The notes: generated by a model from the letters alone, not told the origin. Counted from the first letter of the stretch, positions 1 through 59,233 are shown. The stretch: 64,000 nt of DNA from an uncultured Mycoplasmatota bacterium (GCA_900552495.1 URZY01000001.1:55502-119501); one strand, 5' to 3'. A program made the numbers and translations.

Positions 1-1752
1 CCAATTATTCAAGTTTTGGAAGAAGTTACGGGTACTCCACATGAAAATGAAACTAAGAAAAATTCTATAGTAGCAATTTTATATGATGAAGAAAAGGATA
101 AATATTTAACGATTAATTGGCATGATAAAGGTGGAAGATTGTTTGTAGGAGGCACTATTCAAGATGGAGAGTCTGCTTATGATTGTGCCGTTCGAGAAAT
201 TTTAGAGGAAACAGGTTATAAGAATGTTGAATTTGTTCACGAGCTGCCTAAGATTAATCATCATTACTATGCTTATAATAAGGATAAGTATTTTAATATT
301 GAATGTACAGGGTTCTTATTTAAATTGAAAAATTATGAACAGGATACACAACAACTTGATGATGATGAAGAGTTTGATGTAGAATGGGTTGATGCTAAAG
401 TAATTAATAATGAGATTAAAGACGAATTACACGCAAAAACTTATCAATATGCTATGAATCCTGGGGCTATGTGTGGTGATGGTATTCATATTAATTCAGA
501 AATGTTAGATGGACTAAATAAAGAAGATGCTATTAAAGTAATGTTGGAATGGTTAGAAAAGAATAATTGTGGAGAGAGAAAAGTTAACTACAAGATGCGT
601 GATTGGATTTTCTCTAGACAAAGATTCTGGGGCGAACCAATTCCAATGATTAATTGTCCAAAATGTGGTTGGGTTCCAATGAATGAGGAAGATTTGCCAT
701 TATTACTACCAGATGTTGCTGAGTATGAGCCAACAGAGAATGGGGAGAGTCCATTGGCTAATATTAGTGATTGGGTTAATTGTAAATGTCCAAAATGTGG
801 TCATGATGCAAAGAGAGAAACTGATACAATGCCTAACTGGGCAGGATCTAGTTGGTATTTCTTAAGATTTATGGATGCTCATAATACGCATGAATTTGCT
901 TCAATGGAAGCGATGAAATATTGGAATAGGGTTGATTGGTACAATGGTGGTATGGAACATACGGCGAGACATTTATTATATGCAAGATTTTGGGTACAAT
1001 TTTTATATAATATTGGCTTAGTTCCAAATAAAGAAATGATTTGGACAAGAGTGAGTCATGGTATGGTACTTGGTTCAAATAATGAGAAAATGAGTAAGTC
1101 TAAAGGTAATGTTATTAATCCAGATGATATTGTTAATGAATATGGGGCAGATACGTTACGTTTGTATGAAATGTTTATGGGTGATTATCAACAAGATGCC
1201 CCTTGGAGTACAGATTCATTAAGAGGTTGTAAGAGGTTTATTGATAAAGTTATTAGACTTAAAGATAAAGCTATTGATAGTAATGAACTTACAAAAGATT
1301 TGGAGGTAATTCAACATAAAACAATAAAAAAAGTTACTAATGATTTGACTAATATGGCTTATAATACTGCTGTATCAGCCTTAATGATTTTAGCTAATGA
1401 ATATGATAACCATGAGTTTACTAAAGCCGATTATCGTCTATTATTAACACTTCTTAATCCGATTTCACCACATATAACGGAGGAGTTGAACGAAAAACTT
1501 GGATATGAAGCATTATGCTATGCTGAGTGGCCTGTTTATGATGAGGCAAAAACAGTAGAGACAGAGGTAGAAATTGGTGTCCAAGTAAATGGTAAAGTAC
1601 GTGGAACTATTAAGATTAGTGTTGATGAAGAAGATGAGACAATAAAAAATAAAGCTATGAATGATGAAAATGTTAAACGTCATATAGCTGGAAAAGAAAT
1701 TGTTAAGGTTATTATCATTAAAGGAAGAATTGTTAATATTGTTGTGAAATAA
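1..1752 (+). CDS. leuS: Leucyl-tRNA synthetase, C-terminal ~580 aa; the 5' end lies outside the window. Contains a Nudix-box segment ahead of the catalytic KMSKS region.
   Basis: Frame is open from nt 1. Motifs GERKVNYKMRDWIFSRQRFWGEPIP (post-CP1 LeuRS signature) and KMSKSKGN (KMSKS) are present, followed by an anticodon-binding C-terminal region. Near the N-terminus of the visible part: GGTIQDGESAYDCAVREILEETGY, an exact Nudix box. Confidence 0.9.
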   Translation, partial: PIIQVLEEVTGTPHENETKKNSIVAILYDEEKDKYLTINWHDKGGRLFVGGTIQDGESAYDCAVREILEETGYKNVEFVHELPKINHHYYAYNKDKYFNIECTGFLFKLKNYEQDTQQLDDDEEFDVEWVDAKVINNEIKDELHAKTYQYAMNPGAMCGDGIHINSEMLDGLNKEDAIKVMLEWLEKNNCGERKVNYKMRDWIFSRQRFWGEPIPMINCPKCGWVPMNEEDLPLLLPDVAEYEPTENGESPLANISDWVNCKCPKCGHDAKRETDTMPNWAGSSWYFLRFMDAHNTHEFASMEAMKYWNRVDWYNGGMEHTARHLLYARFWVQFLYNIGLVPNKEMIWTRVSHGMVLGSNNEKMSKSKGNVINPDDIVNEYGADTLRLYEMFMGDYQQDAPWSTDSLRGCKRFIDKVIRLKDKAIDSNELTKDLEVIQHKTIKKVTNDLTNMAYNTAVSALMILANEYDNHEFTKADYRLLLTLLNPISPHITEELNEKLGYEALCYAEWPVYDEAKTVETEVEIGVQVNGKVRGTIKISVDEEDETIKNKAMNDENVKRHIAGKEIVKVIIIKGRIVNIVVK

Positions 1753-46440: not shown

Positions 46441-48132
46441 TTAGTTGTTATCTTTGTCTTTTTTTATATCTAAGATAATTGGTAGAATAATTGGTTTTCT
46501 ACCTGTTAGATTGTAAATAAATGGATATAAGTTTTCTGTTAAATCATTTTTTAGATTGGCAAATGTTGAGCGTGGATCCTGAAGAGATAATTTAATTGAA
46601 TTTTCAGCTTTGGTTTCAATTTTGTGAATTAATTCTTCGTTTTCGTTTACTAAAATAAAGCCTCTTGTTGTAATATTAGGTTTAATTAGTAGTTCGCGCT
46701 TTTTCATATCAACATTAATAATTACTACTAAAATACCGTCATTAGCCATAATTTTGCGATCTTTTATGACAGCACTACCAATTTCGCCAATCCTGTTACC
46801 GTCAACATAGATATCAGCTCCAGGCATACTTTCGCCTCTGGTAATAATGTGATTTTTTAAATTAAGTGTATCACCATTTTTTAAAATAAAAGTATTTTCC
46901 TTTGGGATACCACAACTAATACCAATATCAGCTTGCTTTTTTAGCATGCGGTAATCACCATGGAATGGCATTAAGTATTTTGGTTTTAATAAGCGAATCA
47001 TTAATTTTACCTCTTCTTCGTTGGCATGTCCAGATGTATGTAAATCGGCTAATGCATTATTGGTATAAACTTTAACGCCTTTTAAGTATAATTTGTTTAC
47101 TATTTTTGAAATACTTAATGCATTTCCTGGAATGGCACTTGATGAGAAGATTACAACGTCATCAGGACGTAGTTTGATCTGTTTATGAGTACCATTAGAA
47201 ATTCTTGATAAGGCCGCTAGAGGTTCACCTTGACTTCCAGTACATAGTAATGTTACCTCATTTGGTTTTAAATTATTGGCTTCCTCTGGTGTTACTAGTA
47301 ATTCTTTATGGTCGATATAACCACCATTAATAGAAATATTAATATTGTTTTCCATACTTCTTCCAAAGATGCATATTTTTCGGTTATGTTTGTAGCATGT
47401 TTCAAAGATGTGTTTAACACGATAAATGTTTGAAGCAAAAGTTGCAATAATAATACGGCTATTTTTACATTTATCAAACATTTCACCAAGTGTTTCATCT
47501 ACAACTGATTCACTATTAGAAAATCCTTCATTTAGTGCGTTAGTAGAATCTCCAATCATTAAATCTACCCCATCTTCACCCAAGCAGGCCATTTTGTATA
47601 AATCGGCCATTGGACCAACTGGGGTTAAATCAAATTTGTAATCTCCAGTTGTGCATATTCTTCCATCGGGCGTTTTAACGCTAATCCCATGTGAATCAGG
47701 TATAGAGTGAGTAGTTCTAAAAAACTCTATTTCAATCTCCTTAAATTTTAATTTTGTATTTTCAGTATAGACAAATAAATTATCATATCTGATATTACGA
47801 TCCTGTAATTTTACAGCAATTAATTCTTTAGCATGGTTAGGAGCGTAAATTGCAGGAATATTAATACTTTGAAGTAAAAAGGGAATTCCTCCAATGTGAT
47901 CTTCGTGACCATGAGTTATTAGTAAAGCTTTAATCTTGTTTTCATTTTCTTTTAAAAATGTAAAATCAGGTAAAACGTAGTCTACTCCCATAAGTTCACT
48001 TTCTGGGAAACTAACACCGGCATCAATAATAACAATTGCGTCTTTATGCATTACACAATACATATTTTTTCCGACTTCTCCTAAACCACCTAAAACAACT
48101 ATTTTTGTTTCATTGGTTTTTTGATTATTCAT
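46441..48132 (-). CDS. rnjA: Ribonuclease J.
   Basis: Metallo-beta-lactamase HxHxDH (ITHGHEDHIGG), beta-CASP, and C-terminal domain. 563 aa. Confidence 0.9.
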   Translation of the reverse strand: MNNQKTNETKIVVLGGLGEVGKNMYCVMHKDAIVIIDAGVSFPESELMGVDYVLPDFTFLKENENKIKALLITHGHEDHIGGIPFLLQSINIPAIYAPNHAKELIAVKLQDRNIRYDNLFVYTENTKLKFKEIEIEFFRTTHSIPDSHGISVKTPDGRICTTGDYKFDLTPVGPMADLYKMACLGEDGVDLMIGDSTNALNEGFSNSESVVDETLGEMFDKCKNSRIIIATFASNIYRVKHIFETCYKHNRKICIFGRSMENNINISINGGYIDHKELLVTPEEANNLKPNEVTLLCTGSQGEPLAALSRISNGTHKQIKLRPDDVVIFSSSAIPGNALSISKIVNKLYLKGVKVYTNNALADLHTSGHANEEEVKLMIRLLKPKYLMPFHGDYRMLKKQADIGISCGIPKENTFILKNGDTLNLKNHIITRGESMPGADIYVDGNRIGEIGSAVIKDRKIMANDGILVVIINVDMKKRELLIKPNITTRGFILVNENEELIHKIETKAENSIKLSLQDPRSTFANLKNDLTENLYPFIYNLTGRKPIILPIILDIKKDKDNN

Positions 48133-48302
48133 AAAAACTCCTTTCTTATATTTAAAAATTTATATAAAGAATTAACTCTAAAATTATACTATAAAAATTT
48201 TTATTTGTCTAGGTGTACTAATGTATTAATGTGAATATAATTTTACGAGCTTTGTCTTTGTAAATGTTGCTTATTTATGATAAAATGGAGATGGTGATAT
48301 AG

Positions 48303-49388
48303 ATGGGATTATTTAATAAGATTAAAAGTATGTTTCAGAAAAATGAAACGTTAGATGAAAATGAAATAAAGAAAAATAATTTAGATGAAAATAATATTCA
48401 GGAAGATTTAAATGAAACCGACACTAATATTGATAATGTAGATGAGTTGCAGTCTAAAAATAAAGATGTTAGAATCTATGAAAAAGGATTAACTAAATCA
48501 CGTCAAGGTTTTGTGTCTAAATTGGCTAATTTAACTAATAAGTATAGAAAAGTTACGGATGAGTATTTTGAAGAATTGGAAGAAATTCTAATTATGGCGG
48601 ATATTGGTGTTAATACTGTTATGGAATTTATTGATCGCCTGAGAGATAGAGTTCAAAAAGAGAAATTAGAAGATCCAGAAATGCTTAAGGAAATAATAGT
48701 TGATGAGTTATTTATTATTTATGTAAATGATTCTGTATTAACTAGTAAAATTACTTATAATGATAATGGACCAACGGCTATATTGTTTGTTGGGGTTAAT
48801 GGGGTTGGAAAAACAACAACTATTGGAAAGATTGGGTATCAATTAAAAAAGGAAGGAAAGAAAATTCTATTAGTAGCAGCAGATACTTTTAGAGCTGGAG
48901 CGACAGCCCAACTTAGAGAATGGAGCGAAAAAATAGGTGTTGGGTTTTATGGAAAAGAAGAAGGGGCTGATCCAGCGAGTGTTGTTTTTGATGGATTAGA
49001 AAAGGCAAAGAAAGAAGAATATGATGTCGTTTTAATAGATACAGCAGGAAGACTACAAAATAAGGTTAATTTAATGAAAGAACTTGAGAAAATGAATAAA
49101 GTAATTGATGGACAGATAGAAGGTGGAACGACAGAAACTTTATTAGTGATTGATGCTACAACTGGTCAAAATGGGATTAGTCAAGCAAAGGCATTTAAAG
49201 AAATTACAAATATAACAGGTATTGTATTAACAAAGTTGGATGGAACTGCAAAGGGTGGAATAGTTCTTGCTATAAAGGAATCAGTAGGAATACCTGTGAA
49301 GTATATTGGGCTTGGTGAAACAAAAGATGATTTACAAGTATTTGATATTGAAAAATATATTTATGGATTATTTAAAGATATGATGTAG
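48303..49388 (+). CDS. ftsY: Signal recognition particle receptor FtsY.
   Basis: SRP54-type GTPase GVNGVGKTTTIGK, DTAGR. Confidence 0.9.
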   Translation: MGLFNKIKSMFQKNETLDENEIKKNNLDENNIQEDLNETDTNIDNVDELQSKNKDVRIYEKGLTKSRQGFVSKLANLTNKYRKVTDEYFEELEEILIMADIGVNTVMEFIDRLRDRVQKEKLEDPEMLKEIIVDELFIIYVNDSVLTSKITYNDNGPTAILFVGVNGVGKTTTIGKIGYQLKKEGKKILLVAADTFRAGATAQLREWSEKIGVGFYGKEEGADPASVVFDGLEKAKKEEYDVVLIDTAGRLQNKVNLMKELEKMNKVIDGQIEGGTTETLLVIDATTGQNGISQAKAFKEITNITGIVLTKLDGTAKGGIVLAIKESVGIPVKYIGLGETKDDLQVFDIEKYIYGLFKDMM

Positions 49389-49397
49389 GTGATTCTT

Positions 49398-49763
49398 ATG
49401 ACAAAGAAAGAGATAAAAGGAAAAGAAAACAAGATAAAGAAAAAAACAAAAGGTGCAAAATTACTGGAGGAAATGCCAGGAGAAGAAAAATATCAGGGAA
49501 TTAGTCCTATCAATAGGTTTAATATTTTATTTGCTGATTTACAATTTATATTTACAATTTTCACTTTGATATGTTTTGTTTGGTATTTGTTTAATGATAA
49601 AGTATGGGATGTATTACAGTTTGTTTTAGCGATTACCTTATTTATTATTGGTTATAACAATAAAATTATTTATAATAAATCAAAGAAGGCCTATTTTTAT
49701 TATGCTTGTGGGGCAATTATTTTAGTTTTGGAAATTCTTACATTAATTTTAGAGGTGATTTAA
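49398..49763 (+). CDS. Small membrane protein (2-3 TM helices) between ftsY and ylxM.
   Basis: RBS GTAGGTGA. Hydrophobic helices. Stop overlaps the ylxM start (TAATG). Confidence 0.5.
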   Translation: MTKKEIKGKENKIKKKTKGAKLLEEMPGEEKYQGISPINRFNILFADLQFIFTIFTLICFVWYLFNDKVWDVLQFVLAITLFIIGYNNKIIYNKSKKAYFYYACGAIILVLEILTLILEVI

Positions 49764-50056
49764 TGGAGGATGTAGTTTATTTTAATGAGTTATATGATTT
49801 GTATGGAGATTTATTAACTGCTAAGCAAAAGTTATATTTTGAAGATTATTATTTTAATAACTTGAGTTTCTCAGAGATGTCTGAAAATTACGATGTTAGT
49901 AGAAATGCAATTTTTAAGCAAATTCATATTGTTACTGACAAATTAAAAGAATATGAAAGTATTTTGAAACTTTATGAGAAAAGGAATACTTTGTTAGCAC
50001 TATCAAGTAAAATAAAGGATGAAAATGTTAGAGAACAATTGGAAGAATTATTGTAG
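49763..50056 (+). CDS. ylxM: YlxM (UPF0122) putative HTH protein of the SRP operon.
   Basis: LSFSEMSENYDVSRNAIFKQIHIV is the sigma70-region-4-like HTH typical of YlxM. Located between ftsY and ffh as in Bacilli. Confidence 0.8.
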   Translation: MEDVVYFNELYDLYGDLLTAKQKLYFEDYYFNNLSFSEMSENYDVSRNAIFKQIHIVTDKLKEYESILKLYEKRNTLLALSSKIKDENVREQLEELL

Positions 50057-50085
50057 GTAAGTTGTGAACTAACTTATCTTTTTTC

Positions 50086-50114
50086 TTGTAAAAATTAATG
50101 AGAGAATGTATAAT
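50086..50114 (+). promoter_or_regulatory. Sigma-A-type promoter dedicated to the HerA-like ATPase gene.
   Basis: TTGTAA, 17 nt spacer, TGTATAAT (extended -10), about 50 nt upstream of the ATG. Confidence 0.55.
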
Positions 50115-50165
50115 TTATAATATATGATAGGGTGAGAAGAATAAAAACTGAAATGGGGTAATGCT

Positions 50166-52733
50166 ATGTTTGATAAAATAACATTTATTAGTGATGAGGG
50201 TGCGACAATCAGATTGAAAGATAGTGAAAATCTTACAATGAATTTAATGAATTTGCATTTGGTTTTTGAAGACGAAACAAAAAAGATATTAGGGGAAGTT
50301 AATGATGTTAATGGTGATACTGTAAATGCTAGTTTTTTAGGGGAAATTGTTGGAAATAGATTTTTAGGTGGTACCATTAGAAAACCACGCTTGGATGCTA
50401 AAATTCGTGTTATTAATAATGATGAGATTCAATTAATTACAGGACGGGATGAAAGAGGATTTATGAAATTGGGAAATACCCCTTTTTATGAAGGATCCTC
50501 AGTATTTTTGGATGTTAATAATTTTTTTAGTAGTCATTTTGCAATTTTTGGTAATAGTGGTTCTGGTAAATCATGTGGTATTTCAAGATTATTCCAAAAT
50601 ATGTTTAGAGATGAGAGACTTAATCCATGTAATGCTAATATTATTATGTTAGATTCATCTGGTGAATATTATAATGCCTTTAGCAATTTAAATAGTATAA
50701 ATCAAAATTTTCACTATCGATTCATTAGTACTAATGAGAATGCTCCAGGAAGTGATAGTTTAAGAATTCCTATTTATTTATTGAATGTTGATGATTTAGC
50801 CTTATTATTACAAGTAACTACTCATTCACAATTGCCAATTGTTGAAAGAATGAGAAAATTAGCATTAGTTTTTTCTCAAAAGGATATGGATGCTAATAAT
50901 TATAAAAATCATTTGATTGCAAAAGCAATAATGACTATTCTATATACAAATGAGACTGCACCAAATAAAAGAAATGAAGTTTTTTCAATTTTAGCTAGTT
51001 GTTCTACCCCCCAATTTAATTTGGAAGCAGTTGTACAAGGAATTGGTTATACGAGAAAGTTTCGAGAGTGCTTTTTAATTGATAATAGTGGTAATTTTTC
51101 TGAAAGTGTTTTACTTACAGAATATGTTTCTTCATTTATTGATGATGAACTTGATTCTTATGAGCCAGCAGATGGGGCTTTTTATACATTAGATACGTTG
51201 GAAAAGGCTCTTAATTTTACATTGATTAGTGAAGGTTGGTTAAGAAATAAAAATACTTATGGTGATGCTGTTACGTTAAAAGTTCGTTTGCATTCATTAA
51301 TTGTTAGTAACAATGCTTCGTTTTTTGATGTTCGGGAATATTTAACGGTTGAACAATATTTAAAGTCTTTAGTTAATAAGGATGGACGAAAGTACCAGTT
51401 TGTTAATATTAATTTGGATGATGTTGATGATAGTTTTGCTAAGGTAATTACGAAGATTTTTTCGAGATTAATATTTGATCATTCCAAAGCGTTAGTTCAA
51501 AGAGCTAGTGATCCTTTTCATATTATTGTTGAAGAAGCACATCGTTATATTCAAAATGATACGGATAGATTTTTGCTTGGATATAACATTTTTGAGAGGA
51601 TTGCTAAAGAAGGACGTAAATATGGTGTTATTCTTGGTATTATTACACAAAGACCGGTAGAACTTTCAGATACTGTAATTTCTCAGTGTTCTAACTTTTT
51701 AATTTTTAAAATGAACCATCCTGTTGATCTTGAGTATATTAGAAAAATGGTTCCAAATATTAGTGATGAAATTGTGGAAAAACAAAAGAATTTACAGGCT
51801 GGAACTTGTTTAGGTTTTGGAAGCGCTTTTAGAATTCCGATGATTGTTAGAATGGATATGCCGGATCCTGCACCTTGGAGTGGAAACTGTGATGTTGTTT
51901 CTTATTGGGGAGGAGGTTCAGCTGTTACTACTAAGCCTGCTACTAATGTTGAGTCAGTAACGACTACTAGTAATGGGGCGATTCCAGAAATTGCGACAAG
52001 TCCATCGACGACTACTAATGTGGTAGGAATTTTGGAGCCAGTGGCACCTAGCGATGTTACAAATGCTAAAGAGACTAGTTTGGTTACTTTAGCTGATGGT
52101 AACTCGGTTTCAACGCATGGTAATGGTCAGTTTGGGTTGTTAAGTGATGATGGGACAAATGCGGCTGGTGAGAAACGTGTAGAAGAAGATTTGGATGGTG
52201 TGCCAATTGTAACATCTAATCCAATGCCACCGGTTAGTTCATTTGTGGATCCTAGTGTTTCGGCTATGGAAGTTGCGCCTTCAAATGGTGGTAGTCAAAC
52301 ACTAGTTAATTTCTTAGGTGGAGAGACTTTTAAAACACAAAATATGACAGTTAATACTGTTGCTGAAGAAAAACCACAGGCTGTAGAGCCGGCACCAACA
52401 TTGGTTTCGTTTAATAGTGCTAGTAATGTTACTATGGATAATTCTAATACTTTAACTCAGGTACCAGGACAAATGCTAAATACTAATTCCCCTGTTAGCG
52501 CGCTTGATGTTAATAATGTTTCACCAGGCGATGAAAATCAAAAAGATACATTTGGTAAACCTGATGTTACAAATATAAATAATTTTAGTCCAATAAATCC
52601 TAATATGGCATTAGTAAATGCTGTTGCTTCACAAACAGAAGGTTTTACTACTAATATACCAAGTAATATGAATTTAGCTAGTGATGGAGATAGTGGAGTA
52701 GCAACGGGAACAGAAATGGTAAAATTTGTATAA
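50166..52733 (+). CDS. HerA/FtsK-superfamily (DUF87-like) ATPase with an N-terminal HAS-barrel-like domain and a ~290-aa disordered S/T/N/P/V-rich C-terminal tail.
   Basis: Walker A FGNSGSGKSCG, Walker B/DEAH-like HIIVEEAHRY, TQRP sensor region ITQRPVELSDTVISQCSNFLIFKM. Residues ~560-855 are low-complexity with no TM helix. Own promoter and terminator. No partner nuclease gene nearby. Confidence 0.8.
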   Translation: MFDKITFISDEGATIRLKDSENLTMNLMNLHLVFEDETKKILGEVNDVNGDTVNASFLGEIVGNRFLGGTIRKPRLDAKIRVINNDEIQLITGRDERGFMKLGNTPFYEGSSVFLDVNNFFSSHFAIFGNSGSGKSCGISRLFQNMFRDERLNPCNANIIMLDSSGEYYNAFSNLNSINQNFHYRFISTNENAPGSDSLRIPIYLLNVDDLALLLQVTTHSQLPIVERMRKLALVFSQKDMDANNYKNHLIAKAIMTILYTNETAPNKRNEVFSILASCSTPQFNLEAVVQGIGYTRKFRECFLIDNSGNFSESVLLTEYVSSFIDDELDSYEPADGAFYTLDTLEKALNFTLISEGWLRNKNTYGDAVTLKVRLHSLIVSNNASFFDVREYLTVEQYLKSLVNKDGRKYQFVNINLDDVDDSFAKVITKIFSRLIFDHSKALVQRASDPFHIIVEEAHRYIQNDTDRFLLGYNIFERIAKEGRKYGVILGIITQRPVELSDTVISQCSNFLIFKMNHPVDLEYIRKMVPNISDEIVEKQKNLQAGTCLGFGSAFRIPMIVRMDMPDPAPWSGNCDVVSYWGGGSAVTTKPATNVESVTTTSNGAIPEIATSPSTTTNVVGILEPVAPSDVTNAKETSLVTLADGNSVSTHGNGQFGLLSDDGTNAAGEKRVEEDLDGVPIVTSNPMPPVSSFVDPSVSAMEVAPSNGGSQTLVNFLGGETFKTQNMTVNTVAEEKPQAVEPAPTLVSFNSASNVTMDNSNTLTQVPGQMLNTNSPVSALDVNNVSPGDENQKDTFGKPDVTNINNFSPINPNMALVNAVASQTEGFTTNIPSNMNLASDGDSGVATGTEMVKFV

Positions 52734-52747
52734 TATAGAGATAGAAA

Positions 52748-52780
52748 ATAGTATAGAGATATACTATTTTTTGTTTTTTA
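52748..52780 (+). terminator. Rho-independent terminator after the HerA-like gene.
   Basis: AATAGTATA-gaga-TATACTATT followed by TTTTTGTTTTTT. Confidence 0.65.
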
Positions 52781-52816
52781 GGTTTTTTTTTGCTATAATA
52801 AATTTAGGTGATATAT

Positions 52817-54124
52817 ATGTTTGAAAGTTTAGGCGAAAGATTACAAAATGCATTACATAAAATTAAGGGATATGGAAAAATTACAGAAGATAATATTTCT
52901 TTGATGATGCGAGAGATTAGATTAGCTTTGCTGGAAGCAGATGTTAATTATAAAGTAGTCAAGGAGTTTACAAATACGGTAAAGGAAAAAGCTTTAGGTG
53001 AAGAAGTTATTAGTAGTATTAATCCTGGAGATTTATTCGTTAAAATTGTAAAAGATGAGTTATGCGAATTGTTGGGGGGAGAAAATGCACCACTTAATAC
53101 CAATGGTAATCCAGCTATTTTGATGTTAGTTGGTTTACAAGGTTCTGGTAAAACAACTACAATTGGAAAGTTAGCAAATTTTTTGCGAAAAAAGCACAGT
53201 AAAAAGCCTCTATTAGTTGCTTGTGATGTTTATAGACCAGCAGCTATCGATCAGTTAAAACAGCTTGGTAAGCAATTAAATATTGAAGTGTATGATGAAG
53301 GTAAAAATGATCCGGTAAAAATTGCGACTAATGCTTTGAATTATGCAAAAGAAAATGGTTATGATTATGTACTTGTTGATACTGCAGGTAGACTACATAT
53401 TGATGAAGAATTGATGGATGAATTGGATTGTATTAAGAATAATATTAATCCGCAGGAAATATTATTAGTTATAGATTCAATGATGGGACAAGATGCTATT
53501 AATGTAATTACTGGCTTTAATGATAAATTACCACTCACAGGTGTTATTTTAACTAAATTAGATGGTGATACCCGTGGCGGAGTAGCATTGTCTGTTAGAC
53601 ATTTGACTAATGTACCAATAAAGTTTATGGGTACTTCAGAAAAATTGGATGGGTTGGAACTTTTTGATCCAGAGCGTATGGCCGGTAGAATTTTAGGAAT
53701 GGGAGATATTATTTCTCTTGTTGAAAAAGCTACCGAAGTGATTGATGAGAAGGAAGCTGAGAAAGCAGCAAAGAAAATGCAGCAAGGTAAATTTGATTTA
53801 GAAGACTTTTTATCAACGATGAAACAAGTGAAAAAACTTGGTCCTTTAGAAAAACTTATAAAAATGATTCCTGGAGCGCAGAAGATGGGACTTACTAATA
53901 TAGAAATTGATCCAAAGCAAATGGCTCATGTTGAAGCAATTGTCTTGTCGATGACGCCAAAGGAAAGAAGAAATCCTGATATTATTAAAGCAAGTCGTAA
54001 AACAAGAATTGCGGCGGGAAGTGGTAGATCTGTTCAAGAAGTAAATAGATTACTTCAGCAATTTGATCAAATGAAAAAAATGATGAAACAAATATCAAAT
54101 GGTAATATGAAGTTACCGTTTTAG
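52817..54124 (+). CDS. ffh: Signal recognition particle protein Ffh.
   Basis: GLQGSGKTTTIGK, DTAGR, TKLDGDTRGG and an M-domain at the C-terminus. Own extended -10 (TGCTATAAT). Confidence 0.95.
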   Translation: MFESLGERLQNALHKIKGYGKITEDNISLMMREIRLALLEADVNYKVVKEFTNTVKEKALGEEVISSINPGDLFVKIVKDELCELLGGENAPLNTNGNPAILMLVGLQGSGKTTTIGKLANFLRKKHSKKPLLVACDVYRPAAIDQLKQLGKQLNIEVYDEGKNDPVKIATNALNYAKENGYDYVLVDTAGRLHIDEELMDELDCIKNNINPQEILLVIDSMMGQDAINVITGFNDKLPLTGVILTKLDGDTRGGVALSVRHLTNVPIKFMGTSEKLDGLELFDPERMAGRILGMGDIISLVEKATEVIDEKEAEKAAKKMQQGKFDLEDFLSTMKQVKKLGPLEKLIKMIPGAQKMGLTNIEIDPKQMAHVEAIVLSMTPKERRNPDIIKASRKTRIAAGSGRSVQEVNRLLQQFDQMKKMMKQISNGNMKLPF

Positions 54125-54136
54125 GAGGATAAGAAT

Positions 54137-54682
54137 ATGAATATAAGTGAAGTTAAAAAAATGATTGAAGGGGCAAGTTATGAAGAGAAGATTCAGGTAT
54201 TAGAAAATATCTGTAGAAGAGTTGGAGACCGCTTAGAAAATGGTTATTTGGGAAGTAGTGTAGCTAATATTTCTTATGATGATTTTGGATATGTGGAATT
54301 TCAATCAGAGAAAGTTGAAGAGGCGATAACAACACAGTCTAAGGGAACTGTTTTAGATAATTCGGTTATTATAATGCAAGTTCAACAAAGTACTACAAAT
54401 AAATTGCTAAATCTTTATTCATGGAAATTAGATGGGAGTAGTTATACGTATTTTGCATTTGATAGTAAAGCAGCCTTGGAACACGCTTATCAGGCTATAA
54501 AAAAGGCTAATAAGGTATTTTTGGCTGAAAATTTAGATAATGATTTACAGGAACTTGGAATTATGTATCGTGATATTATGAATGTGAAAGTTGCTGTTAA
54601 AGTAGGAGAGATGCCAATTCAAACCGAGATGACAACAGAAGATATGCAACAATCAGAATTATTAACTTCATTTAGTGTATAA
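54137..54682 (+). CDS. Hypothetical protein (181 aa) translationally coupled to ffh.
   Basis: AGGAGG RBS, 13 nt after the ffh stop. No recognisable motif. A terminator follows. Confidence 0.55.
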   Translation: MNISEVKKMIEGASYEEKIQVLENICRRVGDRLENGYLGSSVANISYDDFGYVEFQSEKVEEAITTQSKGTVLDNSVIIMQVQQSTTNKLLNLYSWKLDGSSYTYFAFDSKAALEHAYQAIKKANKVFLAENLDNDLQELGIMYRDIMNVKVAVKVGEMPIQTEMTTEDMQQSELLTSFSV

Positions 54683-54710
54683 GAATTACGGTTTAGTAAT
54701 TCTTTTTTTG
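54682..54710 (+). terminator. Rho-independent terminator.
   Basis: AGAATTAC-ggttta-GTAATTCT followed by TTTTTTT. Confidence 0.65.
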
Positions 54711-54811
54711 TTAAAAATTATTATTAAAAAAGGTCTAAATTAAATAGGATATTTAATAAGTTTTTGTGTCTCAAATTTTTAAGAAACATATTATAAGGTA
54801 GGAGGTATATT

Positions 54812-55039
54812 ATGTTTGATCAAGGTATGAATCAAAATTTTGGTTTTGATAATCAAGTTGTTGGAAACAACAATACAATTGAAAATGATATGAATGTTGA
54901 TGTTACAATGATGGGAATGAATAATATGATGCAGGATAATATGAATGGTTATAATGCTCCAATTAATGAAGGTGTTCAACAAAGAGTGGTAAACAGAACT
55001 TTTGTTCATGAGGTTCCACAAGTGAGTCCTTTTATGTAA
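54812..55039 (+). CDS. Small CotD-like spore coat protein (75 aa, N/M/Q-rich).
   Basis: RBS AGGAGGT. C-terminal VVNRTFVHEVPQVSPF resembles the CotD family repeat. Own terminator. Confidence 0.45.
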   Translation: MFDQGMNQNFGFDNQVVGNNNTIENDMNVDVTMMGMNNMMQDNMNGYNAPINEGVQQRVVNRTFVHEVPQVSPFM

Positions 55040-55075
55040 GACTAGAGTAAGTGGAGTTAAATAAGTACGAGTTAA

Positions 55076-55102
55076 AGGCATTCGATAGGTGAATGTCTTT
55101 TT
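55076..55102 (+). terminator. Rho-independent terminator.
   Basis: AGGCATTC-gataggt-GAATGTCT (one G-U pair) followed by TTTTT. Confidence 0.55.
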
Positions 55103-55144
55103 GTGTGGTATAATTTAATTAGTAAATCTCGTGGAGGTATAAAA

Positions 55145-55744
55145 ATGAAATTAGTGAAATTAAAATGTCAAGGTTGTGGAGCAATATTGAAGGTAAACGA
55201 AGAATTGAAAAAAGTTACTTGTAATTATTGTGGTACAGATTTTTTAGTAGATGACGAAGTTAAAAGAGTCGAAATAACAAAAAATATTAATCATCATAAG
55301 ATTTATACTGATGAAGCAAAAATAAAAGAAAATGAAAGAAAGATAAAGGAATTAGAATATAAAGATAAAGGAAAAAAACGTGATAATATTGTGATTTTTG
55401 TTTGTTTTGGTATTATGATATTTATGGGTTTATTTTCTGTTGGTATGTCGTTTTATTATGATAAACAGAGTGAACCTGATAAGCATGAACTAAAAGTACC
55501 TATGAGTGCAAAAAAATATAGGGGAGAAAACTATGAAGTTGTTGTTCAGCAATTAGAAGATGCTGGATTTGAAAATGTTGAATCAAAAGCAATAAAGGAT
55601 TTAGTTACTGGATGGATGACAAAAGATGGTGAGGTTGAAAGTGTTTCTATTGTTGGTGATACAGGATTTGAAGAAGGTGAAATATTTTCAAAAGATTCTG
55701 AGGTTGTTGTGACATATCATACTTTTAAGAAGGAGAAGAAATGA
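55145..55744 (+). CDS. Zinc-ribbon / single-TM protein with a C-terminal beta-rich domain.
   Basis: CQGCG...CNYCG zinc ribbon, a TM helix (IVIFVCFGIMIFMGLFSVGMSFYY), then ~95 aa of soluble domain. Own extended -10 promoter and GGAGGT RBS. Confidence 0.6.
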   Translation: MKLVKLKCQGCGAILKVNEELKKVTCNYCGTDFLVDDEVKRVEITKNINHHKIYTDEAKIKENERKIKELEYKDKGKKRDNIVIFVCFGIMIFMGLFSVGMSFYYDKQSEPDKHELKVPMSAKKYRGENYEVVVQQLEDAGFENVESKAIKDLVTGWMTKDGEVESVSIVGDTGFEEGEIFSKDSEVVVTYHTFKKEKK

Positions 55745-57033
55745 AATTAAAATTGGGAAACAAAAATAGTAAATCAATAATTGAAAATAATTTTGAAAAG
55801 AAAAAATTAATTGATAATAATAGCATACTTATTATAAAAAACTATTTGAATGAAGATATTATAAGGATTAACAATAGTGTTGCTGTTATTGAAAATAAGA
55901 ATAATTACATTCAATTAGCGGAAGATGTTGTTCCAAGGGTTGATGCAATATTTAAATCAGTTCCAGAGATTGCAGAAGTAATTTCCAGTAAAGATGTATA
56001 TGAAGTTATTTATGATAAAGGTTTAGGCACACTTCAAAAATCAGCAAAACATCCAGGTTATGTGCTTGGAAACATTGTTGATTCTTCAACTAATACAAAT
56101 TATAAAGGTTCTGCATTATTAAAACCTGTATCTGGAGTTCAACAAGCTGTCGGTTCAGTTTTTTCTGTGATGTCAGTTGCTACAGGTCAATATTATATGG
56201 ATAAAATAGATAATAAACTTGAATCAATCTTTTCAGATGTAGAACAAATTAAGAGTTTTTTGAGTGATGATAAAAAAAGTAATTTAGAGAGTTATGAACA
56301 TTATTTTCGCAATGTAATTAATAATTTGCAAGTATGCTATGATAATGAAAACTATAAAAGTGCTGTGTTAAACGAATTACAATCTATTCAAAATAATATA
56401 TATAGTTCTATTCAACTTTATAAAAAACAAATAAATAAACATAAAGAAAAAGTTAATCAAAAAGATAAGGCAAAAGTTGTCGTTGAAAATATAAGCGAAT
56501 TATGCGAGTTGATTTCGTCATATAAATATTCTGTAACTTTATATATGTACTGTAAATTATTAGAAATTATTGTTTCTGAAATAAGTGATGAAATTTATTT
56601 AAATTCTATTATAGATGATTTAAATAATATTCAAAATGATCATAAAGTGAATTTTTCTGAATGGGAAGAAATATATAATAAATATATAAATTCTGCTAAA
56701 GCATATAAAGAAAGTGAGATATTAAATGTTGTATCACATTTTAAAGATAATAGTTTTATTTCAAATAATTTAATGCTTAATTTAGGAGTGAAATTAGTTG
56801 GGCATGGTGCTGATATTTGGTATAACAAGGATAAAGAAAAGAAGCAAAACGAAAAGAGTAAACAAATAGATTCAATAAAAATACTATTTAAAGATAATTC
56901 AGAAGAATTAAAAAAATATACAAAATATTTGTCTTATTATAGTAGTTTGTACAATAAACCACTTAAAGTTATTAAGGATAATAATCAAGTTTATATAGAA
57001 TTGTTAGAAGATAATAATAACAGCACAAAATAA
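55741..57033 (+). CDS. Hypothetical protein (430 aa) translationally coupled to the upstream zinc-ribbon protein.
   Basis: ATGA overlap with the upstream gene. N/K-rich, no TM helix, no recognisable motif. Confidence 0.55.
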   Translation: MKLKLGNKNSKSIIENNFEKKKLIDNNSILIIKNYLNEDIIRINNSVAVIENKNNYIQLAEDVVPRVDAIFKSVPEIAEVISSKDVYEVIYDKGLGTLQKSAKHPGYVLGNIVDSSTNTNYKGSALLKPVSGVQQAVGSVFSVMSVATGQYYMDKIDNKLESIFSDVEQIKSFLSDDKKSNLESYEHYFRNVINNLQVCYDNENYKSAVLNELQSIQNNIYSSIQLYKKQINKHKEKVNQKDKAKVVVENISELCELISSYKYSVTLYMYCKLLEIIVSEISDEIYLNSIIDDLNNIQNDHKVNFSEWEEIYNKYINSAKAYKESEILNVVSHFKDNSFISNNLMLNLGVKLVGHGADIWYNKDKEKKQNEKSKQIDSIKILFKDNSEELKKYTKYLSYYSSLYNKPLKVIKDNNQVYIELLEDNNNSTK

Positions 57034-57240
57034 ACACAAAATTTCTACTAAATAAACCATGGATTCCAAATTATATATGTTAGAATGTGACTAAATAAGC
57101 TTATTTTGAAAGAAGAGTTAGCTATAACTTTTCTTTTTTTGTGTAATCTCGGTAAATGTGTTAATTTTTAAATCACCGGAATTTGTTAGAACCTATATAA
57201 ATAAAGGGATAAATCGAGTTTTTACTTGATAATGGGATTG

Positions 57241-57258
57241 ATTTTGCAAGTGCAAAAT
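57241..57258. repeat. Perfect 18-bp palindrome ATTTTGCAAGTGCAAAAT in the non-coding stretch upstream of the recombinase gene.
   Basis: Read directly from the sequence. 8-bp arms around an AG centre. Confidence 0.7.
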
Positions 57259-57646
57259 ATGTTTGGTGTCATATAAAACATTGAAATTACTTGGTAATTT
57301 TAATGTTGCGGCACCACGCTCTTATCCTGATATAAAAATTACTATTAAAAATAGTGGTTTTTGGGATTGGTAATTTTAGACCTTATTGGTCTTTTTTATT
57401 GGAATAAAGGAAGTGTAGTAATGAATAATCATAGTACTGAAGTCATAAGTTTTTTTATAGTAATGAGGATGATTTAATAATGGGAGATTATAATATTAAT
57501 GTTATTTTTAGTGAGGATAATATTTCTTTAGAAGATATCTTTACTAAAGTATTATTAAAAGAACTCTTAATGATTTTGAAAAAGGAAAATAATATGATAG
57601 AGTCATCTTGTACTTATTTATCTCTAAATAAAGATGGAGGTAAGAA

Positions 57647-59233
57647 TTGAATTATTTAGAGAGTTTAAATAAGATTTATAATGTTGGTATTTATATAAGA
57701 TTATCTAGAGAAGATGATGAGAAGATTTATGAAAGTGAAAGCATTACTAATCAAAAGAGTTTATTACTTCAGTATGTTAAAGAAAATAATTTAAGAGTTT
57801 TTGATATATATGTTGATGATGGTTATTCAGGTACAAATTTTGATAGACCTGGTTTTAAAAGATTAATTAATGATATTGAATCTAAAAAGATTAATATGGT
57901 TATTACCAAAGATATGTCTAGGTTAGGCAGAGATTATATTGGTACTGGTAATTTAATTGAAAAGTATTTTCCAGAACATAATGTTAGATATATTGCTGTT
58001 ACTGATAATATTGATACTTACTTAGATAATTCCAATAATGATATAGCACCGTTTAAAGCAATAATGAATGATATGTATGCTAAAGATATATCTAAAAAAA
58101 TAAAATCTAGTTTAAGAGCAAAACAAAAAGAAGGTAAATGGGTTGGGGGAAGATGTCCTTTTGGATATATGCAAGAGCCTAATGATAAAAATCATTTAGT
58201 TATTAACGAAGAACAAGCTATTATTGTTAGAAGAATATATGATATGTGTTTAGAAGGATTATCTTTTTTTAAGATAGCTAAAAAATTAACTGATGAAAGA
58301 GTTAAGACTCCTGCACAATATTATAGTTTTGAATGGAAGAGTAATTATAATTTAAAGTTAGGTGAATGGCATTCTAAATCAATAAGAGATATTTTAACTA
58401 ATCAAATTTATACTGGCGATTTAGTACAAAATAGAAGAAGTAAAGTTAATTATAAAGTTAAAAAAGTCGTTAGAAATAATCCTAAAGATTATATTATAGT
58501 TGAAGGAACACATGAACCTATTATTGATAAAGAAATTTTTTATGAAGTTCAAAAGAGAATACCAAAGAATGTAGGTAGAAATGAAAAGAAAGAAGTTCAT
58601 TTATTAGATGGATTAATGTATTGTGGAGATTGTGGCCATAGAATATCAGTTCAACCAAGAAGAAAAAAAGATAATAGATGTTATACAATATGTAATTATT
58701 ATAGAACTTATATAAGACAGAAATTTTGTACATTACATTGTAATAACTATGATGTTTTAGAGCAAGTTGTATTAGATACTTTAAGAAGTTATTGTCTTAA
58801 ATATTTAGATAGTAAGAAAGTAAAAGAAAGAGTATTAAGTAACTTAAATGATAATGAAGTAGATAATAGTCTAAAAGAAATTAAACTACTTGAGCAAGAA
58901 ATAAATCGTATTAATGAAAATTTAGATAGTATTTATTTAGATAAGCTTAATAAGGTGATTAGTGAAGAACAGTTTAATAGAGTAAAGATAAAATTAGAAA
59001 ATGAACTAAAGATTAAGCAAGATAAGCTAATGAAATTGATTGATTGTAGTAATGATACTTTTAATAAAGAAGAACAAAATAAAATGATTGAAAAGTATAT
59101 TAATAAATTTTTATCTATGAAAAATCCTAGTAGAGAACTTGTTATTAACCTTATTGATAGATTAGATATTTATGAAGATAAAAAACTTGATATTAAATTT
59201 ACTTTTAATGTTGAAACAAGAACAAATGTTTGA
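57647..59233 (+). CDS. Large serine recombinase (resolvase/invertase N-terminal domain, recombinase domain, zinc-ribbon/coiled-coil C-terminus).
   Basis: N-terminal YIRLSREDD...SITNQ (catalytic Ser region)...GYSGTNFDRPGFKRL...DMSRLGRD. CxxC...C...C zinc-ribbon motif around residues 325-365. 528 aa. TTG start with GGAGGT RBS. Confidence 0.85.
   Translation: MNYLESLNKIYNVGIYIRLSREDDEKIYESESITNQKSLLLQYVKENNLRVFDIYVDDGYSGTNFDRPGFKRLINDIESKKINMVITKDMSRLGRDYIGTGNLIEKYFPEHNVRYIAVTDNIDTYLDNSNNDIAPFKAIMNDMYAKDISKKIKSSLRAKQKEGKWVGGRCPFGYMQEPNDKNHLVINEEQAIIVRRIYDMCLEGLSFFKIAKKLTDERVKTPAQYYSFEWKSNYNLKLGEWHSKSIRDILTNQIYTGDLVQNRRSKVNYKVKKVVRNNPKDYIIVEGTHEPIIDKEIFYEVQKRIPKNVGRNEKKEVHLLDGLMYCGDCGHRISVQPRRKKDNRCYTICNYYRTYIRQKFCTLHCNNYDVLEQVVLDTLRSYCLKYLDSKKVKERVLSNLNDNEVDNSLKEIKLLEQEINRINENLDSIYLDKLNKVISEEQFNRVKIKLENELKIKQDKLMKLIDCSNDTFNKEEQNKMIEKYINKFLSMKNPSRELVINLIDRLDIYEDKKLDIKFTFNVETRTNV

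Follow-up and report, generated by a model that had tools for sequence, protein, structure and literature searches.

To our knowledge, bacterial HerA ATPases are known in two settings, in one of which they act with a NurA partner in DNA-end processing and in the other of which they serve as a scaffold that activates a Sir2 or DUF4297 effector in defense. Here, we analyze a HerA-family gene (herA, 50166–52733, plus strand) in a 64,000-nucleotide (nt) stretch of DNA from an uncultured Mycoplasmatota bacterium (GCA_900552495.1 URZY01000001.1:55502-119501; hereafter the window, from whose first nucleotide all positions are counted). The gene encodes a protein of 855 amino acids (aa), lies between ylxM and ffh, and appears to represent a third setting, namely a solitary HerA that behaves as an essential-style core gene across a large and abundant group of gut Bacilli. 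Comparison of the gene, its product and its surroundings across species indicates that it is very probably a housekeeping HerA belonging to the core of its lineage and not a mobile defense gene. Our literature searches (RF39, SepF/DivIVA links, and standalone HerA/DUF87) found no description of this HerA family.

The most similar described systems are the Sir2-HerA (Nezha) and DUF4297-HerA defense systems (PDB 8yhx, 8j4u, 8su9, 8xau, 8ziq, and 9c1m; PMC11514289; bioRxiv 10.1101/2024.10.24.620088), with which the window HerA shares a three-part fold (template modeling [TM] scores of 0.62–0.72), the motifs GxxGxGKS, hhhhxEEAH, EGRKYG, and (T/S)QRP, and a best PDB sequence match with an E value of 2e-43. 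Unlike the genes of these systems, the window herA is chromosomal and syntenic, has no adjoining effector gene and is as conserved as ftsY, and unlike the solved defense HerAs its product carries a 273-aa, motif-bearing tail and a divergent N-terminal region of approximately 100 residues. The HerA proteins of archaeal and Deinococcus-Thermus HerA-NurA systems (PDB 4d2i and 9x1m), in which the role of the NurA system is a housekeeping one, have the same fold and ATPase motifs (TM scores of 0.54–0.58); however, they are only 15–17% identical to the window HerA, which has no NurA neighbor. FtsK/SpoIIIE proteins belong to the same superfamily of ring-shaped pumping ATPases, and relatives of the window HerA adjoin sepF-divIVA. 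In FtsK, a long, poorly conserved, and disordered linker joins the motor to the anchoring part. Unlike FtsK/SpoIIIE, the window HerA lacks both a membrane domain and the gamma domain that reads FtsK-orienting polar sequences (KOPS), and it has the motor first and the linker last.

The HerA ATPase and its locus

The window gene encodes a true HerA-type motor ATPase as judged by profile score, predicted fold and sequence motifs. The protein matches the Pfam model PF01935 (DUF87, "Helicase HerA, central domain") with an E value of 7e-20 and a score of 72.4 bits, well above the cut-off of 23.2, whereas the FtsK_SpoIIIE model gives only 17 bits against a cut-off of 24. Among the PADLOC models, HerA PDLC04102 matches best (E value of 3e-104, residues 97–581), and the top PDB sequence matches are all HerA proteins, that is, 9c1m (the HerA of a HerA-DUF4297 system), 8xau, 8ziq, 8j4u, and the Sulfolobus HerA 4d2i; the closest solved and plasmid-encoded relatives are approximately 20–30% identical. 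The protein falls far below the cut-offs of the more specific NCBIfam models, both those for defense (HerA_antiphage, NF042943, 158.3 bits vs. 850; HerA_antiphage_2, NF042944, 144.9 bits vs. 800) and those for repair (helicase_HerA, 92.8 bits vs. 970; HerA_Thermprot, 99.5 bits vs. 800), and the best defense models leave the N-terminal 100 or so residues uncovered.

Structure prediction points to the same family. A first AlphaFold model, built from 29 sequences that are all at least 75% identical, reached a predicted local distance difference test score (pLDDT) of 62.5 and remained below 50 in the insertion domain. A second model (m2382cd1832a7), built from 50 sequences including relatives with 38–47% identity, reached a pLDDT of 85.5 and a predicted TM score (pTM) of 0.84, and it is predicted to consist of a beta-barrel (residues 1–120), a RecA-like core and a helical insertion (approximately residues 208–387), with pLDDT dropping below 50 from residue 575. 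When this predicted fold was searched with Foldseek against the PDB, all 50 matches listed were HerA chains aligned over their full length, the best of which was 8yhx, from the Sir2-HerA system of Staphylococcus aureus (TM score of 0.72). The predicted HAS-barrel-like N-terminal domain (50166–50525, strands E2–E116, block pLDDT 67–92) is included in the full-length Foldseek alignments to HerA. The predicted helical insertion or bundle domain (50787–51326, helices H208–H387) contains many invariant columns, and a helical-bundle domain of this kind is part of HerA structures (PMC11514289).

The motifs of the ATPase are conserved throughout the family. All four of them, GNSGSGKS, HIIVEEAH, EGRKYG, and TQRP, are invariant in a set of 50 family sequences that extends down to 38% identity. 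In the Walker A motif GNSGSGKS (aa 129–136, 50550–50573), this applies to G129, G132, G134, K135, and S136, and in the Walker B motif with its catalytic acid, HIIVEEAH (aa 452–459, 51519–51542), to E456, E457, A458, and H459; the latter motif aligns with the CEEAH and YEEAH motifs of the HerA chains 9c1m and 8xau. The EGRKYG block (aa 482–487), which presumably occupies the arginine-finger position, and the TQRP block (aa 494–497; together 51609–51656) are identical or nearly so to the corresponding blocks of 9c1m and 8xau. With its catalytic motifs intact and under strong purifying selection, the protein is presumably an active, ring-forming motor. The preliminary description of this locus, which was made from the sequence alone, had proposed a solitary 855-aa HerA gene between ylxM and ffh, an N-terminal HAS-barrel-like region, a GNSGSGKS Walker A motif and a TQRP block, and had suggested a profile search with the DUF87/HerA and FtsK_SpoIIIE models; all these features were recovered and the search decided for HerA. 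The "DEAH-like" Walker B motif of that description is in fact EEAH, as in antiphage HerAs. A 102-aa open reading frame (ORF) on the minus strand (50069–50377) spans the promoter and the first 70 codons of herA; because the sense-strand features that it covers, the promoter and the N-terminal coding region, are conserved, it is most likely spurious.

To place the gene in its genomic context, we scanned one genome per species and collected at least 80 ortholog loci, each from a different species (L numbers designate these loci and P numbers the proteins of relatives). All of them come from uncultured gut assemblies of the "Bacilli," "Mycoplasma sp. CAG:877," or "Clostridium sp. CAG:451" type, the last two being GenBank labels that we take to correspond to the GTDB order RF39. 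The gene order rny, rnj (minus strand), ftsY, a small membrane ORF that is not always present, ylxM, herA, and ffh is found in approximately 60 of 80 loci, and the gap between herA and ffh is mostly 44–80 base pairs (bp). The identity of the HerA core to the window protein is 65–88% (mean 74%), compared with 73.7% for FtsY and 58% for YlxM, and across loci it rises and falls with that of ffh and rnj (Spearman correlations of 0.75 and 0.82, respectively). Tracking of this kind argues for vertical descent under purifying selection. In the protein database, the family comprises more than 8,000 clusters at 90% identity but only about two at 50% identity. By these comparisons herA is a vertically inherited gene of the lineage core at a fixed position in uncultured gut Bacilli, and the synteny, its recurrence in some 60 of 80 loci, and the tracking of divergence together indicate that it is neither a recent insertion into a core operon, as had been proposed in the preliminary description, nor a defense-island gene. 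In one subgroup (L048, L054–L056, L058, L060, L062, L075, and L077) the upstream synteny with ftsY-ylxM is lost, approximately 3 kb containing a gene for a 403-aa protein of unknown function, fmt, and a 246-aa gene separate herA from ffh, and the tails end in SPIPEVMPG...NPTxI; in L048, NUDIX and Fic-like genes lie upstream.

The transcription signals around herA would be weak evidence if taken from the window alone, because promoter-like sites there are as frequent as in shuffled sequence; we therefore rely on their conservation across species. A promoter-like site upstream of herA consists of TTGTAA (50086–50091), a 17-nt spacer and TATAAT (50109–50114), all on the plus strand, and matches the consensus at 10 of 12 positions. 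The TG that precedes the −10 hexamer abuts it directly ("TG_before_second: no"), so that it is not a canonical TGn extended −10 box as had initially been described. The pattern CTTGTAAAA ... TATAAT is kept 5' of herA across orthologous loci, and when scored as TTGnnn-16..18-TAnAAT it is present in 63 of 76 loci, compared with 12 of 76 in the control. Directly 3' of the ylxM stop codon, a weak A/T-rich hairpin followed by a T-run (50057–50085, plus strand) resembles a terminator and has equivalents 5' of the herA promoter in many loci; under a strict test requiring a 7-bp stem and a T-run, 22 of 76 loci are positive and the window copy fails. Between the −10 box and the herA ribosome-binding site lies a purine-rich element in the 5' untranslated region, GATAGGGTGAGAAGAATA (50126–50143, plus strand), which is conserved across orthologous loci and takes the form (G)ATAGGGTAAAA(A/G)GAATA at the same place in most of them (L001–L046). 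The element has no obvious pairing partner, and a search of positions 48000–55200 against Rfam gave nothing at an E value of 1 or less, so that it does not belong to any known RNA family; it might bind a protein or serve in translational control. The common upstream order across loci is a hairpin, a T-run, CTTGTAAAA, approximately 17 nt, TATAAT, the leader ATAGGGTAAAAAGAATA, and a G-rich ribosome-binding site.

Downstream of the herA stop codon, a terminator-like hairpin with an 11-bp stem made up entirely of A-T pairs (52745–52770) is followed by a T-run (the whole at 52745–52779, plus strand), and its position is conserved while the sequence of the stem varies from species to species. In most loci, folding shows a hairpin and a T-run 3' of the herA stop codon. 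A loose test for this feature did not discriminate (63 of 78 loci vs. 40 of 78 in the control) and was dropped in favor of a strict one (an 8-bp stem without mismatches, then 6 or more T in 8 nt), under which 25 of 78 loci, with 22 different stems, are positive as opposed to 1 of 1,872 control tiles inside the gene. The "strong" terminator of the preliminary description is therefore borne out in its position but not in its strength, the all-A-T stem not having been flagged by a scan that requires G+C pairs. Between this terminator and ffh, the window has an extended −10 box, TGcTATAAT (52791–52799, plus strand), and a TAYAAT box is found in the same interval in 40 of 41 loci. The conservation of these promoters and terminators across species indicates that herA is its own transcription unit and that ffh has a promoter of its own, both as had been proposed; herA is accordingly predicted to be monocistronic, with its own promoter and terminator.

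The disordered tail

Beyond the ATPase, the window HerA ends in an acidic tail (aa 583–855, 51912–52730, plus strand) that is predicted to be disordered from its composition and from a pLDDT below 50. At 273 aa it is slightly shorter than the 290 aa first estimated, the long and disordered character being as described. The tail is rich in N, S, P, V, and T, almost devoid of R, K, H, Y, W, and C, and has a net charge of −20; none of its 19-aa windows reaches the hydrophobicity needed to span a membrane (Kyte-Doolittle mean of at most 0.75), and its DNA contains no tandem repeats. The longest tail among the loci, in L003, has 422 aa, whereas the 587-aa protein of L073, whose gene likewise follows ftsY and ylxM, has none (0 aa). 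Between the window protein and its nearest relatives the core is 85–89% identical and the tail only 22–35%. Whether the tail is conserved or only similar in composition, a question raised in the preliminary description, can accordingly be answered in two parts: as a whole it is conserved in composition only, and within it short motifs are kept.

The recurrent motif reads roughly G-x-(P/S/T)-L-(V/I)-(N/S/T)-(F/L/I), with the short form (S/T/P)-L-(V/I)-x-(F/L). A motif scan of the window HerA placed copies at SLVTL (aa 638–642, 52077–52091), TLVNF (aa 712–716, 52299–52313), TLVSF (aa 745–749, 52398–52412), and, at the extreme C-terminus, EMVKFV-COOH (aa 850–855, 52713–52730), all on the plus strand; peptides representing the tail are GSQTLVNFLGGE, PAPTLVSFNSAS, and the C-terminal GVATGTEMVKFV. 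Tails of the window subclade have three to five copies each. Among 72 tails there are 56 matches, compared with 5.2 ± 2.3 in shuffled sequences and zero in the cores, and the motif class occurs in the last 15 residues of 32 of the 72 tails where shuffles lead one to expect 0.4. A second motif, NIPSNMNL (aa 830–837, 52653–52676, plus strand), lies approximately 20 residues before the C-terminus and recurs as NIPSNMNL in L001 and as RIPSNLTL in P0122. In other subclades the tails end differently, either in acidic tips such as LTLDDTDDDLGPDFS (...DDDLGPDFS) or in SPIPEVMPG.

Two of these elements offer tentative leads in that they resemble docking peptides of other proteins. The pattern L-V-x-F-(L/V/I) is similar to the core of the FtsZ C-terminal peptide, I-P-x-F-L, which is bound by FtsA and SepF, and the acidic tips (DDDLGPDFS, and NFDIPFG in P0319) are similar to DDDIPF, the C-terminal tip of the single-stranded DNA-binding protein SSB. 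With FtsZ, the analogy is one of architecture, a variable disordered linker ending in a short hydrophobic peptide; unlike in FtsZ, the motif of the window HerA is repeated along the tail, and the two proteins are not homologous. The tail is a clear case in nature of a linker that is free to drift in sequence while its short, putative docking motifs are retained and multiplied.

Relatives and possible functions

An exhaustive search of representatives clustered at 50% identity revealed a step down from the window lineage to full-length relatives with 32–47% identity, most of which are 576–663 aa long. Sister-lineage relatives are almost all approximately 590 aa, tail-less, and solitary, and one relative alone was found in 737 blocks of the contig collection. 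No Sir2, DUF4297, or NurA neighbors were found in the genomic context of nine such relatives. A metagenome scan added 80 further loci encoding proteins 41–48% identical to the window protein. In 31 of these the order is yqeG-yqeH-herA, and in 18 sepF lies within 900 bp downstream of herA, usually followed by divIVA, with upstream genes that vary (M16 peptidases, PP2C, and others); in the remaining 31 the context is a different one or cannot be judged because the flanks are too short. Some relatives are located a few kb from recO, dnaE, dinB, or comEA/comEC. Two sepF-linked relatives have a true FtsK gene (alpha, motor, and gamma domains) a few kb away, and in their genomes HerA therefore does not simply take the place of FtsK. 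The nearest plasmid homologs, from Listeria, Enterococcus, and Lactobacillus, are approximately 30% identical over residues 53–581 and form SIR2-HerA pairs in which the SIR2 gene overlaps herA by 8 nt. The window family is thus a solitary, chromosomal, and lineage-core branch that is most similar to the defense HerAs.

Two groups of relatives vary the domain plan. P0122, a 943-aa protein with 47% identity, has a long tail containing SLVNFNN, SLVTFNN, RIPSNLTL, and ...SPLSSFIDNM and degenerate ATPase motifs (GNDGFGKS, LLIDNAH in place of VEEAH, and no TQRP); this single sequence may represent a pseudo-ATPase that retains only the tethering function. Five other proteins (P0126, P0280, P0320, P0327, and P0370; loci L092 and L094) carry a disordered, V/P/Q/N-rich N-terminal extension of approximately 110–185 aa, whose tip, MGLFGENL or MSLFGENF, is conserved in four of the five. 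This subfamily adjoins sepF-divIVA in the cases where context was looked up (P0320 and P0370), and the window FtsY also starts with a similar sequence, MGLFNKIK. The occurrence of an extension with a conserved tip in a sister subfamily suggests that a linker plus tip is a recurring design of the family.

Our search for partner genes recovered only housekeeping neighbors of herA in the window (ftsY, the small membrane ORF, ylxM, and ffh), in agreement with the preliminary description. A tblastn search with the plasmid SIR2 protein gave no match in the window or the chromosomal loci; no unassigned ORF of a size fitting a DUF4297/Cap4-like nuclease is adjacent, although no search with a DUF4297 sequence of its own was made. 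PADLOC models gave nothing below an E value of 0.0097 on the neighboring ORFs, no NurA-like gene is adjacent to herA in approximately 170 chromosomal loci examined, and there are no conjugation genes near the window herA. FtsK was not found in the window or in the flanks of RF39-type loci, a statement that applies to local sequence only, and ftsZ had no match in 1.9 Mb of locus sequence when searched with an approximate FtsZ query. A phage collection yielded just two weak partial matches, one of which is annotated as a terminase.

Of the two possibilities raised in the preliminary description, a single-gene defense module and a DNA translocase, we favor the latter. The protein would form a ring-shaped hexameric motor that, given its family membership, most likely acts on double-stranded DNA as characterized HerAs do, and its architecture suggests that the tails, presumably six in number, would tether it flexibly and multivalently to a partner or hub in the cell. 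Our best guess at the process, prompted by the neighborhood in a sister clade, is that the motor might contribute to segregation or clearance of DNA at the septum in a manner coupled to division. Taken as a whole, a housekeeping hexameric HerA translocase whose tails tether it to a partner in division-coupled chromosome handling is a tentative proposal, to which we give slightly less than an even chance. A more specific form, in which the protein is an unrecognized division or segregation motor of Mollicutes-like gut Bacilli, arisen on the same branch as the antiphage HerAs and tethered to SepF/FtsA via its copies of the FtsZ-peptide-like motif, is rather doubtful. Several observations weigh against the general proposal. 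DNA as the substrate is proposed purely from family membership, and the link to division from adjacency in a sister clade, the neighbors in the window lineage being signal recognition particle (SRP) genes. In another sister clade the adjoining gene is yqeH, whose product is a GTPase of ribosome assembly; at least two of the sepF-linked genomes contain FtsK, and the closest characterized relatives are defense proteins. Moreover, the regex motif is absent from half of the tails, which have the acidic or SPIPEVMPG tips instead, the enrichment tests are partly circular because the motif was defined from the same sequences, and kinship between species, which are not independent samples, inflates the motif counts.

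Defense in another form would be a fixed, "domesticated" single-gene antiphage system, in which phage DNA or proteins would be detected by the HerA ring and the response would come from the tail or from an effector encoded elsewhere. The ATPases of Sir2-HerA and DUF4297-HerA are indeed the closest solved structures and plasmid relatives, the PADLOC HerA match is strong, and an arms race could be the reason why the tail evolves so very fast. However, defense genes are typically patchy and located in variable islands, whereas this gene has a position fixed in approximately 60 species, a seemingly vertical inheritance and a conservation equal to that of FtsY; effector and SIR2 genes are missing from its surroundings, the scores with the antiphage equivalogs (158 and 145 bits) are far from their cut-offs of 850 and 800, the best defense models do not extend to the N-terminal 100 or so residues, the phage collection gave only the weak partial matches described earlier, and distant relatives are solitary at other housekeeping positions. 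We consider such a system improbable. The preliminary description, which had asked how homologs are distributed between defense islands and core, had itself named ubiquitous, syntenic core homologs of known housekeeping role as speaking against its defense idea; homologs do occupy fixed core positions (ylxM-ffh, yqeH, and sepF) with no defense partner among them, which bears out most of this objection, the housekeeping role being a probable rather than an established one. Equally improbable is a repair motor of the HerA-NurA type with its nuclease encoded elsewhere and a tail that recruits it to the sliding clamp or to hubs of SSB partners. Such a motor would account for the HerA fold and motifs, for the SSB-like acidic tips of some subclades and for the relatives near recO, dnaE, dinB, and comEA/comEC, but no NurA-like neighbor was found in the approximately 170 chromosomal loci, the NCBIfam repair models score only 92–99 bits against cut-offs of 800–970, the DNA-related neighbors are inconsistent between clades, and the resemblance of the tips to that of SSB is a tentative one.

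Somewhat less probable still is a motor with a non-DNA substrate, such as proteins or RNA-protein complexes, that is tied to the neighboring operons for SRP and ribosome GTPases. The neighbors in three clades, ftsY/ffh, yqeH, and era, all encode GTPases that work on or with the ribosome, and the FtsK-HerA superfamily includes the protein-translocating EssC/EccC as well as VirB4. Nevertheless, its own promoter and terminator imply that herA is not cotranscribed with the SRP genes, the change of neighborhood from clade to clade argues for historical accident over functional linkage, the close structural relatives are all DNA-dependent HerAs, and the protein has no membrane segment. A VirB4/TraC conjugation ATPase or an FtsK/SpoIIIE ortholog is effectively refuted by profile scores and gene context: the only matches are weak and below threshold (conju_CD1110, 26.6 bits vs. 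325; FtsK_SpoIIIE as given earlier), conjugation genes are absent from the neighborhood, the protein has neither an N-terminal membrane domain nor the FtsK alpha and gamma domains, and true FtsK coexists with relatives. If the window HerA is a housekeeping protein, as we think very probable, then a motor used in defense and one serving the cell itself would go back to a recent common origin, "defense HerA" labels from annotation pipelines (as with the PADLOC match here) would need a caveat, and these reduced genomes would gain a new cell-cycle component.

Flanking genes

The upstream neighbor of herA, ylxM (49763–50056, plus strand), encodes a 97-aa protein of the UPF0122 family (Pfam PF04297, E value of 2e-22; the gene call in L081, an identical contig, is likewise 97 aa). 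Between ftsY and ylxM, and overlapping an extended ylxM ORF, is a small ORF (49389–49763) whose product of 121–124 aa has hydrophobic stretches; it has no family match, is 31–80% identical in approximately 15 related loci, and is absent from others. The downstream neighbor ffh (SRP54; 52817–54124, plus strand) has a 435-aa gene call. Its mechanically defined ORF starts with GTG at 52808, whereas orthologs and gene calls start with ATG at 52817 (MFESLG...), 7 nt after the ribosome-binding site AGGTGAT, making the latter the likely start. The remaining genes of the window are an ordinary Firmicute core that includes tyrS, ezrA, thiI, ackA, der, cca, dnaD, nth, ponA, recU, gpsB, pgsA, recA, a Mur ligase gene, rny, and rnj.

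In Bacillus, ffh is followed by rpsP, which is not the case in the window. Instead, the region 3' of ffh (54137–59233) encodes a 181-aa protein without a family match, a 75-aa N/M-rich ORF, a zinc-ribbon protein (55103–55744), a 430-aa protein without a significant family match, and a large serine recombinase (57647–59233). Recombinases 70–82% identical to the latter are encoded 1.5–3.6 kb 3' of ffh in at least seven other species (L007, L010, L013, L016, L025, L028, and L032), which suggests an integration hotspot or a resident element downstream of ffh.

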